Part shown: positions 34,439-36,533 of the stretch, piece after piece
Layout: the number at the start of each line of letters is the position of its first letter
Numbering within the stretch: position 1 is the first letter of the stretch
From: an uncultured bacterium
GTDB lineage: Bacteria; CAIJMQ01
Assembly (NCBI GenBank): GCA_964573245.1
Contig: CAZNJA010000007.1
Span: 2,581-42,224, forward strand
DNA: 39,644 nt
Direction of reading: 5' to 3'
The notes under the pieces: generated by a model
Told to the model about the DNA's origin: nothing
The model's input: the letters and a program-made list of their open reading frames with translations, nothing else
The model's database searches: none
Program-made: the position numbers and the translations under genes

Positions 34439-35647
34439 ATGAAAAACAAGTTACCTGACAAAATAGGCAAGTGGGGAAAGTTTGGGGGTAAATTTGTTCC
34501 TGAGACGCTTATGGTTGCCCTGGAGGAATTGTCTTCTGCCTATAGCAAGGCAATAAAGGACAACAAATTTAAAAAAGAACTTGCTTACTATCTTAAGCAA
34601 TATGCTGGAAGGCCTACTCCGCTGTATTATGCAGAAAGATTCAGTGAAAAGGCGGGGGTTAAAGTTTATCTAAAAAGAGAAGACCTTCTTCATACCGGCG
34701 CTCATAAAATAAATAATACGATAGGCCAGGCTCTTTTAGCTAAAAGAATGGGCAAAAAGCGACTTATAGCCGAAACGGGTGCAGGTCAGCACGGTGTAGC
34801 CACTGCAACGGTGGCCGCACTTTTAGGTATGCCTTGCGAAGTTTATATGGGTGAAGAGGATATAAGAAGACAGAAGCTTAATGTTTTCAAAATGCGGTTA
34901 TTAGGAGCAACAGTTATTCCGGTAAAAACAGGAAATAAAACTTTAAAAGACGCAATCAACGAAGCTTTAAGAGATTGGGTGACGAATGTAAAAACTACTT
35001 ATTATCTTTTGGGGTCGGTTGTCGGTCCCTATCCTTATCCTGTTATAGTCCGGGATTTTCAGACAGTAATAGGGAAAGAAACGAAACGGCAAATCCGCGA
35101 ACTTGAGGGCAGGCTGCCTGAATATATAGTTGCCTGTGTAGGCGGCGGCAGTAATTCTATTGGCATATTTTATCCTTTTTTCAAAGAAAGAAAAGTTAAA
35201 CTTATAGGTGTTGAAGCAGGGGGATTTGGGCTTGCATCCGGCAAGCACGGGGCTTCATTATGCAAAGGTAAAGAAGGAGTTCTTCATGGAGCTCGAACTT
35301 ATATACTGCAAGATAAAAATGGACAGATTTCTCCAACACACTCCGTGGCGCCCGGGCTTGATTATTCCGGCGTGGGGCCAGAACACGCATATTTAAAAGA
35401 AACAGGCAGAGCATCTTACTATACGGTGAAAGACAAAGATGCAGTTAACGCCTTTTTTATGCTCTCGCATCTTGAAGGTATACTACCTGCTTTAGAATCG
35501 TCTCATGCGCTGGCTTGGGTTAAAAATTTTTCTGCAAATTTCAAAAAAGGTGATATAGTCGTTGTCAATCTTTCCGGTCGCGGAGATAAAGATGTGGATA
35601 TCGTAGAAGAATGGACTCGCCCCGTTAGAGATTTAAAAAAACGCTAA
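34439..35647 (+). CDS. trpB: Tryptophan synthase beta chain (C-terminus supplied by an inserted element)
   Basis: [47 protein letters not shown]. Confidence 0.98.
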
Positions 35648-35720
35648 AGATTTATCAACCCAATGAAAAAGGGTACTTGTTATAATATTTATGAGCAATC
35701 TATTAAATCTCTAACGGGGT
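35617..35720. mobile_element. 104-bp palindromic miniature element (copy 2)
   Basis: 17-bp perfect arms CCCCGTTAGAGATTTAA / TTAAATCTCTAACGGGG; same termini as 19093-19167. Confidence 0.85.
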
Positions 35721-35732
35721 AAAAGGGAAACA

Positions 35733-36533
35733 ATGAACAGAATAGAAAACAAATGGAAGGGACTGAAAAAGAAAGGGTTAAAAGCATTTATCCCCTTTGT
35801 TACAGCAGGAGACCCCTCGCTGGAAGACACTTATAAACTTGTCTTAGAAATGGAAAGGCAGGGTGCGGATATTATTGAGTTGGGTGTGCCTTTTTCCGAC
35901 CCGATTGCAGACGGCCCCGTGATTCAGTTCTCCTCTCAAAGAGCTCTGGAAAAAGGAGTAACATTAAATAAAATTTTTGGTTTGGTCAAGGATTTAAGAA
36001 AAAAAACAGATATTCCTCTCGTCTTTTTGACATATTACAATCCTGTTTTTCATTATGGCGTTAAAAAATCCGTTGACGATTGTGTTGAATGCGGCGTTGA
36101 CGGTGTAATAATAGCCGACCTACCTCCGGAAGAAGCGAAAGAACTAAAAACATTTTCCAAGAAAAAAGGATTGGATACGATTTTCTTGGCAGCGCCTACA
36201 TCTTCAAAAGAGAGATTGCATAAAGTTGCCACAGCATCCGCAGGATTTATTTATTGTGTTTCGGTCGCCGGCGTAACAGGGGTTAGGAATTCATTAGCGC
36301 AGAGTTTAAAGAAAAGAGTTATGGACATTAAAAATCTCACTGATAAGCCTGTTGCCGTAGGTTTTGGCGTTTCGAACATCAAAACCGCAAGGTGGGTTGC
36401 TTCATTTGCCGACGGGGTCATTGTAGGAAGCGCAATCGTAAAAGTTATACAGAATAACCTTTACAAAAAGGATTTAATCAATAAAGTTGGGAAATTAGTT
36501 AAAGATTTGGCTTCGGCAATTCATAACGTTTAA
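35733..36533 (+). CDS. trpA: Tryptophan synthase alpha chain
   Basis: TAGDP, ELGVPFSDPIADGPVIQ, TYYNP, DLPPEE, GVTG, VGFG, ADGVIVGS. Confidence 0.98.
   Translation: MNRIENKWKGLKKKGLKAFIPFVTAGDPSLEDTYKLVLEMERQGADIIELGVPFSDPIADGPVIQFSSQRALEKGVTLNKIFGLVKDLRKKTDIPLVFLTYYNPVFHYGVKKSVDDCVECGVDGVIIADLPPEEAKELKTFSKKKGLDTIFLAAPTSSKERLHKVATASAGFIYCVSVAGVTGVRNSLAQSLKKRVMDIKNLTDKPVAVGFGVSNIKTARWVASFADGVIVGSAIVKVIQNNLYKKDLINKVGKLVKDLASAIHNV

Follow-up and report, generated by a model that had tools for sequence, protein, structure and literature searches.

Bacterial MITEs (miniature transposable elements with inverted repeats) of the Correia/NEMIS kind are small, gene-less sequences with terminal inverted repeats and a short duplication, are present in many copies, and affect neighbouring genes. 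REP/REPIN repeats with their RAYT proteins, and insertion sequences (IS) of the IS200/IS605 type, use a tyrosine transposase of the HUH kind; they make no duplication and have asymmetric ends with subterminal hairpins. The palindromic elements of Rickettsia are reportedly short palindromic repeats that lie in frame within coding genes and are translated, without the gene being destroyed. The closest published system to the one described here is Ssn/SRM: in the part of their paper drawn on here, Chenal et al. (2025, Nat Commun 16:2388, PMC11893778) describe Ssn proteins as single-domain GIY-YIG nucleases specific for single strands, whose genes are flanked by NTS/SRM hairpin repeats, and remark on the likeness of this repeat-gene-repeat arrangement to an insertion sequence. 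Our subject is a short element, here called copy 2, that is inserted at the trpB-trpA junction of an uncultured bacterium (GTDB lineage CAIJMQ01), together with the family of repeats to which it belongs. The element lies in a stretch of 39,644 nucleotides (the window; positions 2,581 to 42,224 of contig CAZNJA010000007.1, assembly GCA_964573245.1), which contains a second member of the family, copy 1, in a glycosyltransferase gene.

We consider it likely that copy 2 belongs, as a MITE-like form without a gene, to a family of small elements whose complete form, about 280 bp long, has a GIY-YIG nuclease gene as its only gene, and that members insert at TNNA tetranucleotides, with the nuclease probably acting on them in trans. 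The family has defined ends, adds its core plus four nucleotides to sites that are empty in orthologous loci, includes a long form that bears the nuclease gene, and is tolerated in frame within host genes. Below, G000 denotes the window's own genome; G001, G002 and G003 are genomes of the same genus, and G004 belongs to a sister genus.

The core of copy 2 is 100 nt long (35620-35719), and the stop codon of trpB lies 25 nt into it (Table 1). A sequence-only reading of the window, made earlier from its letters, had described two copies with matching termini, unrelated interiors, and arms that pair within each copy only; all of this is seen in both copies, which have the 13-nt inverted ends CCCCGTTAGA[G/A]AT in common and whose arms pair over 16-17 bp. 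Copy 2 folds as single-stranded DNA at -20.9 kcal/mol (z -6.2), a value matched by none of 200 shuffles. The excision arithmetic of that reading is likewise correct: any deletion of 104 nt that spans copy 2 yields TGG AC. ... GGG AAA CAA TGA, in which TGA overlaps the trpA ATG at 35733. It had also proposed that the trpB-trpA junctions of relatives be compared. The junction is empty in G003 (GAC TAC CTA TGA ATA; TrpB ends EDYL*, with an ATGA overlap) and in G004 (TAT ATT AAG GAG AAA TAA TG; TrpB ends GSYIKEK*, with a TAATG overlap), so that the coupled junction it predicted is borne out in kind, and the G004 junction aligns well with that of G000 after removal of the 104 nt. These comparisons support the view that removal of copy 2 would restore the coupling of the trpB stop to the trpA start. 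The Shine-Dalgarno-like AAGGGA ahead of trpA (35723-35728) lies outside the element and has been kept, and the empty G004 site has AAGGAG at the equivalent position.

The same trpB codon is filled in G001 and G002 by a different core, about 130 nt long and composite in look, and their TrpB proteins end in EDYINPVRN* and EDYINPVRD*, respectively. Contigs of four metagenome runs contain the filled allele, which is bridged in X2 and X4, and the contig of a related strain in X7 breaks at 35616/35620 of the trpB site. The joint that excision would leave across the trpB element was not found in the contigs of the four runs, and contigs cannot reveal rare alleles. Neither a two-hexamer promoter nor a terminator was picked up inside copy 2 by a simple scan; by eye, a TGTTATAAT box in copy 2 faces trpA and members of its subfamily have TATAAT-like boxes, for which we claim no function.

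Copy 1 is read through in frame, and supplies 25 extra residues of a 428-aa glycosyltransferase (open reading frame, ORF, 18374-19660). Its single-stranded fold is a three-way junction (-26.9 kcal/mol, z -8.6; matched by none of 200 shuffles). The site is filled in G002 and, at the DNA level, empty in G001, G003 and G004; in G005 the glycosyltransferase gives a split protein match. G001 and G002 are sisters (91.6% identity in TrpB, 93.3% in the glycosyltransferase), with G000, G003 and G004 about equidistant, and the presence of the copy in G000 and G002 with its absence from G001 therefore implies either a precise loss or two gains. Between G000 and G002 the copy is 96% identical, against 79-88% for its flanks.

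Table 1. Positions of the two copies and of the trp genes in the window (strand relative to the window)
Feature	Position	Strand	Remarks
Copy 1 with flanks (TTCA, 71-nt core at 19096-19166, TAAA)	19092..19170	+	from the sequence; Y-shaped type
Copy 1, first end CCCCGTTAGAAAT	19096..19108		
Copy 1, second end ATTTCTAACGGGG	19154..19166		complement of the first end
trpB	34439..35647	+	last 10 residues (RPVRDLKKR and the changed codons before it) and stop supplied by the element
Copy 2, left 4-nt flank CTCG	35616..35619	+	weak form of TNNA; from the sequence and the flank logo
Copy 2, left 13-nt terminal inverted repeat CCCCGTTAGAGAT	35620..35632	+	translated as R-P-V-R-D in the new TrpB tail
Copy 2, interior	35633..35706	+	subfamily of about 100 nt; new trpB stop TAA at 35645-35647
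Copy 2, right 13-nt terminal inverted repeat ATCTCTAACGGGG	35707..35719	+	reverse complement of CCCCGTTAGAGAT; from the sequence and the logo
Copy 2, right 4-nt flank TAAA	35720..35723	+	duplicated target, or 4 nt travelling with the element
trpA	35733..36533	+	start now 85 nt past the trpB stop

Matches to the 10-mer CCCCGTTAGA with at most one mismatch number eight in the window, where 1.63 are expected and none of 100 shuffles reaches eight. An exact CCCCGTTAGA at 1021-1030 lacks a nearby partner end, lies in what appears to be repetitive coding sequence, and could be a relic or have arisen by chance. Genome G000 (1.46 Mb in 110 contigs, 38% G+C, 93% complete) was searched with each 10-mer allowed at most one mismatch and the two ends required to lie less than 400 nt apart, and has 51 paired copies of 29-153 nt that have 13-nt repeats (family consensus (C/T)CCCGTTAGA(G/A)AT) and no gene, those of 29-50 nt being plain hairpins; there are 79 unpaired end matches besides, and at this stringency chance alone should produce many of them. 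In the four genomes of the genus the 14-mer ACCCCGTTAGARAT is found 54 (G000), 30, 58 and 20 times; it is absent from five other genomes of the phylum, and its reversed control is absent everywhere; among these nine genomes the family is confined to this genus.

In a logo of the 51 copies the two ends are alike in inverted orientation, each with a TTNA/TNNA flank followed by CCCCGTTAGA and then R, A and T. T stands at position -4 in 38 and 42 copies at the two ends and A or G at -1, while C at -4 and G at -1, as in the left flank of copy 2, occur in 12 and 9 of the 51; no conservation is seen past -5 or inward of position 13. The arms of a copy also tend to agree where they vary: among 103 copies of the genus, agreement is 92% at position 10 and 93% at position 11, against 54% and 80% when shuffled. 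Matching termini had been recognized by the sequence-only reading, but conservation extends four nucleotides (TNNA) beyond the limits that it drew on both sides. Its further claim of an oriented insertion, marked by AAAA on one side, does not stand, since the logo is symmetric at both ends and this AAAA is made up of the right flank, TAAA, and one more base.

Six comparisons of filled with empty orthologous sites are available, and in all six the filled site has gained the CCCC...GGGG core and 4 nt. They are the trpB site (G000 against G004; gain 104 = 100 + 4), the glycosyltransferase site (AATG TTCA[71]TAAA ATT against AATG TAAA ATT in G003 and G004; gain 75), G003:C56 against G000:C39 and G002:C86 against G000:C9 (gain 75 in each), G001:C4 against G000:C47 (gain 93 = 89 + 4), and the site of a full-length unit (G003 AAAAG TAAA[280]TAAA ACC against G000 AAAGG TAAA CCC; gain 284 = 280 + 4). 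The last is a clean 4-bp duplication; in the sense of the interrupted gene, which is prepilin-like, it reads TTTA and falls in G-F-T codons. Identical 4-nt flanks are found in 16 of the 51 copies of G000; shuffling of the right flanks between copies gives 4.4 +/- 1.8, and none of 5000 shuffles reaches 16; by our own reading of the list another 10 copies have flanks that are one position apart. Inverted identity of the flanks is not enriched among the 51 (3 copies, 4.6 expected). The absence of a target duplication, which the earlier reading had noted, thus holds for the two copies in the window and fails for the family.

That reading had also suggested a search for long copies with the same ends enclosing an ORF. 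One such copy was found, in G003: it is 280 bp long, has the family's ends, and contains as its sole ORF a gene for a GIY-YIG protein of 81 aa (Pfam PF01541, E 1e-16, residues 1-69 of 81), where an HUH enzyme had been anticipated. In an alignment of eight homologs of the nuclease the Y, G, R, H and E columns, which we take to be the catalytic positions, are invariant. The closest solved structure is 1zg2 (UPF0213 BH0048; E 6e-9), a protein that the consulted part of Dunin-Horkawicz et al. (2006, PMC1564403) places among stand-alone bacterial Slx1-like nucleases. Shorter derivatives of the long form also occur. A copy in G001 is internally deleted and consists of the left end, the first 24 codons (71% identity), a hairpin, and the right end, and two copies in G000 (C56:4634 and C13:1166) align to the 5' part of the nuclease gene with scores of 70 and 46, where their shuffled controls reach at most 32 and 30.

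The nature of the enzyme in the long form bears directly on the mobiliser that the sequence-only reading had favoured, an HUH single-strand transposase (IS200/IS605 or RAYT-like) that would move the element in one orientation to a short target without duplicating it. Long copies with these ends encode a GIY-YIG protein and not a Y1 transposase; the inverted repeats are symmetric, with the same flank logo on both sides, and the 4-nt gain (six of six sites) and the identical flanks (16 of 51 copies, and 30 of the 73 nuclease units described below) are at odds with insertion of that kind. An HUH mobiliser is therefore extremely improbable in our view, even though the copies fold into strong single-stranded hairpins, those in the window lack identical flanks, a short tetranucleotide is preferred beside the ends, and the genome has one Y1_Tnp match. 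This match, the only one to PF01797 in G000 (32.7 bits), was rejected as a mobiliser, being a 436-aa protein with SSDKVY in place of the HUH motif (by eye). The protein (G000:C12:23931-24167; locus L033, ORF 1429-2739) has the Y1_Tnp-like domain at its N-terminus, a hydrophobic segment and a membrane-anchored look, and its C-terminal part is similar to the 202-aa protein encoded next to it; the domain may be that of a transposase which has been domesticated and is inactive. With the REP/REPIN-RAYT and IS200/IS605 systems the present family has in common hairpin repeats, one small enzyme gene, and single-strand structure as the likely feature of recognition; of the three traits that set those systems apart (an HUH enzyme, no duplication, asymmetric ends) it has none.

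Units like that of G003 are not confined to the genus. With the 81-aa protein as the query, more than 530 relatives were returned, of which the best 80 loci, not a random sample, were examined; they are 65-79% identical to the query, whose own locus (L122) comes in addition, and stem from records titled Omnitrophota, Planctomycetota, Elusimicrobiota, many Patescibacteria, Desulfobacterota, Bdellovibrionales, and others. In 73 of these best 80 the nuclease ORF, and nothing else, is enclosed between (C/T)CCCGTTAGAGA... and its complement, and the resulting units measure 272-336 bp (272-283 bp in 65 of the 73, with the mode at 277-279). Thirty of the 73 have identical 4-nt flanks, against 8.7 +/- 2.4, and none of 5000 shuffles reaches 30. 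The ORF runs through the right repeat, and in 46 units its stop codon is formed by the three bases with which the right flank begins (GGGG followed by TAA, or GGGA followed by TGA); the protein has a single domain and about 81-86 aa, the modal ORF of 86 aa being found in 27 units. Changes in the repeats are mostly mirrored, appearing in both arms rather than in one (28 vs 6 at position 0, 27 vs 2 at position 12, 3 vs 0 at position 9), and the arms diverge from position 13 on.

DDE transposition classically leaves inverted repeats together with a short duplication of the target, and both are present here. A conventional MITE, moved in trans by a DDE-type (or other) transposase that escaped detection, with the GIY-YIG gene as passenger or as helper (for example in homing or maintenance), would account for them; it would also be in keeping with the fact that GIY-YIG nucleases have no known strand-transfer activity and that the subfamily of copy 2 has only its ends in common with the nuclease unit. 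What makes this explanation unlikely is that no gene of another kind turns up between the ends: the nuclease ORF is the only one in 73 of the 80 best loci, from many phyla; of seven end pairs spaced 300-4000 nt apart in G000, none is a larger unit; and no end pair of IS scale is seen, by eye, among the matches listed for three sister genomes. Six of the seven pairs join ends of separate small copies, and the seventh, which involves one unpaired end, has as its sole large ORF a host gene that reads, by eye, as tryptophanyl-tRNA synthetase. The family resembles the Correia/NEMIS elements in being small and gene-less, with 13-nt inverted repeats, 51 copies, a short duplication, effects on the genes beside it, and presence or absence at orthologous sites, but the partner that shares its ends encodes a minimal GIY-YIG nuclease and not a DDE transposase.

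The interior of copy 2 is common to 11 of 18 aligned copies of about 100 nt, from all four genomes of the genus, and is therefore a conserved subfamily sequence and not arbitrary cargo; other size classes are mosaics of nested hairpin modules. At C70, C11:24698, C22:9709, C1:4584 and trpB, both species are filled by elements that differ in size and interior, with element identities of 13-67% against flank identities of 69-83%. The earlier description of a non-autonomous mobile element is supported, and at several orthologous sites the same ends do enclose different interiors. Recurrent modules (GGTCGCC...GGCGACC, CCTGCCCGC...GCGGGCAGG, GCTCCGACG...CGTCGGAGC) are nested in the elements, often beside the right end, as at L091, L097, L099, G000:C17:9831, C80:2931 and others, and make the interiors mosaic.

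Ssn/SRM offers a further explanation, namely that nuclease and repeat form a host-serving pair that modulates incoming DNA and that the repeats have spread mainly by recombination. The likeness is real, as far as the consulted part of Chenal et al. (PMC11893778) describes that system: there, too, single-domain GIY-YIG nucleases of about 90 residues are bound to short hairpin repeats that flank their genes and number tens to hundreds of copies, and recognition of sequence together with structure would fit the mirrored arm changes seen here. The short copies of 29-50 nt are moreover plain hairpins, and some copies, such as that in the glycosyltransferase gene, are far better conserved than their surroundings. 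Yet presence and absence at orthologous sites are sharp, with a constant gain of 4 nt at TNNA; the two ends are halves of one stem around the gene, where Ssn, by the same account, has two self-contained hairpins with the gene between them; many copies are translated, and 19 of 51 lie inside genes, against the 2% given for NTS in that part of the paper; and the nuclease is nearest in structure to a UPF0213/Slx1-like protein. The SRM pattern HGTCWY..YYVSBRH..WNVSBRG..RNCYNB, as found in the consulted part of the same source (PMC11893778), fits none of the 80 nuclease loci and one of 107 copies, where it picks up a nested foreign hairpin, ATTCCCGC...GCGGGAAT, and so is seen to work; the locus intended as its control, L055, gave no match, its hairpin loop being, by eye, longer than the pattern permits. 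We therefore hold a host-serving pair to be very unlikely.

Several side observations concern other GIY-YIG genes and SRM-type repeats. A 271-nt copy in G002 (C36, L116) has a canonical SRM-type hairpin, TGTCATTCCCGC...GCGGGAATC, nested inside it, and L055 (G002:C104) is a separate GIY-YIG gene flanked by SRM-type hairpins; two repeat/nuclease systems thus coexist in the genus. The six small GIY-YIG genes of G000 were considered as carriers of the family's ends and rejected, none of the six being flanked by them. Some stand beside tRNA genes: genes for proteins of 91-114 aa directly adjoin those for tRNA-Gln, tRNA-Val and tRNA-Ser at G000:C1:10068-10280 (L045), C14:13250-13456 (L054) and C23:234-437 (L049), and likewise at L046, L051 and L053 of G002. 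On C1 of G000 a 35-nt piece of the 5' half of tRNA-Gln is found on both sides of the GIY-YIG gene, which looks as if the unit had entered the tRNA gene, bringing or regenerating part of it. One further gene, at G000:C27:11452-11649 (L042), is 49-52% identical to that of G003 but is enclosed by an inverted repeat of another sequence, 14 nt long (AAAGATGCGGGATT ... AATCCCGCATCTTT), and is followed by additional hairpins, which suggests a sister unit with ends of its own.

Host genes accommodate the family in several ways. Of the 51 copies in G000, 19 lie within genes in a frame that continues without a stop for 40 codons or more to either side, and so count as read through. Another 12 terminate an ORF of 100 codons or more, in eight cases at a TAG that the repeat itself provides, and core length plus four is a multiple of three in 31 of the 51. 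In-frame insertion and read-through, including the 25 residues of copy 1 that orthologs lack, recall the palindromic elements of Rickettsia; the differences are that the phylum is another, that the sequences are probably unrelated, and that the present family has defined ends, a 4-nt gain, and a candidate autonomous form. Prepilin-like genes are a recurrent setting. Three adjacent ones in G003 (L035, C13:9600-11700) each have an element just before the G-F-T-x-x-E cleavage motif, and elements are placed likewise at C4:23505, C13:1166, C53:8880 and C17:24155 of G000; the right end with its flank (TCTAACGGGG TTTAC) itself reads S-L-T-G-F-T, and in G003 the nuclease ORF continues in frame into a pseudopilin.

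Taken as a MITE-like relative of the nuclease unit, copy 2 probably arose as follows. Insertion into a TNNA tetranucleotide would add the core and 4 nt, most simply as a 4-bp target duplication, and the element would have entered trpB within its final codons, ahead of the ribosome-binding site of trpA. In the trpB frame the inverted repeat has no stop, and TrpB therefore ends in residues encoded by the element and at a stop borne by it; the former trpB/trpA overlap would have become an 85-nt spacer that can fold into a strong hairpin. Neither the catalytic body of TrpB nor the start signals of trpA were touched, and the insertion was therefore tolerated. As to the enzyme, we infer that the nuclease mobilises the family: acting in trans, it would recognize the stem into which the two ends pair, probably when the DNA is single-stranded or extruded, and cut at the stem base beside TNNA, leaving host repair or ligation to finish the move.

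Several points weigh against this account. The G003 copy is the only intact nuclease unit with these ends in the five family genomes, and none was found in G000, which is 93% complete. The interiors of copy 2 and of its subfamily of about 100 nt score 33 against the nuclease units, where the shuffled maximum is 32; since this is not above the shuffled controls, descent of the interior of copy 2 from the nuclease gene is not detectable, and copy 2 is tied to the nuclease unit by its ends and flanks alone. The flanks are non-identical in 35 of the 51 copies, including both in the window (CTCG/TAAA and TTCA/TAAA), and many of the non-identical pairs lean to an inverted pattern, TTYA...TRAA, that simple duplication does not explain; it may come from decay, mark the flanks as belonging to a longer repeat, or be a trait of the mechanism itself. 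The metagenome contigs carry only the filled trpB allele, the mirrored arm changes and the unit counts are not phylogenetically independent, and to our knowledge GIY-YIG enzymes are not known to join DNA strands.

A stronger form of the account would make the 280-bp unit an autonomous element of a new class, in which a structure-specific nuclease of 86 residues recognizes the stem of its own element, cuts with a 4-nt stagger at TNNA, obtains its stop codon from the duplicated target, and relies on the host for joining. We advance this tentatively, the case for it falling a little short of balance. In the literature covered, which excluded subscription journals and the supplements of Chenal et al., we found no account of an element that has inverted ends, duplicates its target, and carries a GIY-YIG gene as its sole gene.

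At the trpB locus itself the effect is modest: a housekeeping operon tolerates an insertion that rewrites the tail of TrpB and breaks its translational coupling to trpA. The family matters more: about one copy in three is translated within a gene, a situation known from Rickettsia, and near-identical minimal nuclease units occur in many phyla. If the nuclease does move the element, this would be a new chemistry of transposition carried by a very small element, from which compact DNA tools specific for structure and sequence might be derived; the descent of Ssn-like repeat-gene-repeat arrangements from mobile elements, as suggested in the consulted part of Chenal et al. (PMC11893778), would then become testable. 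Were the unit autonomous as well, it would be about the smallest autonomous element known, spread over many phyla, and would have seeded translated miniature copies in essential genes, including the tail of trpB.

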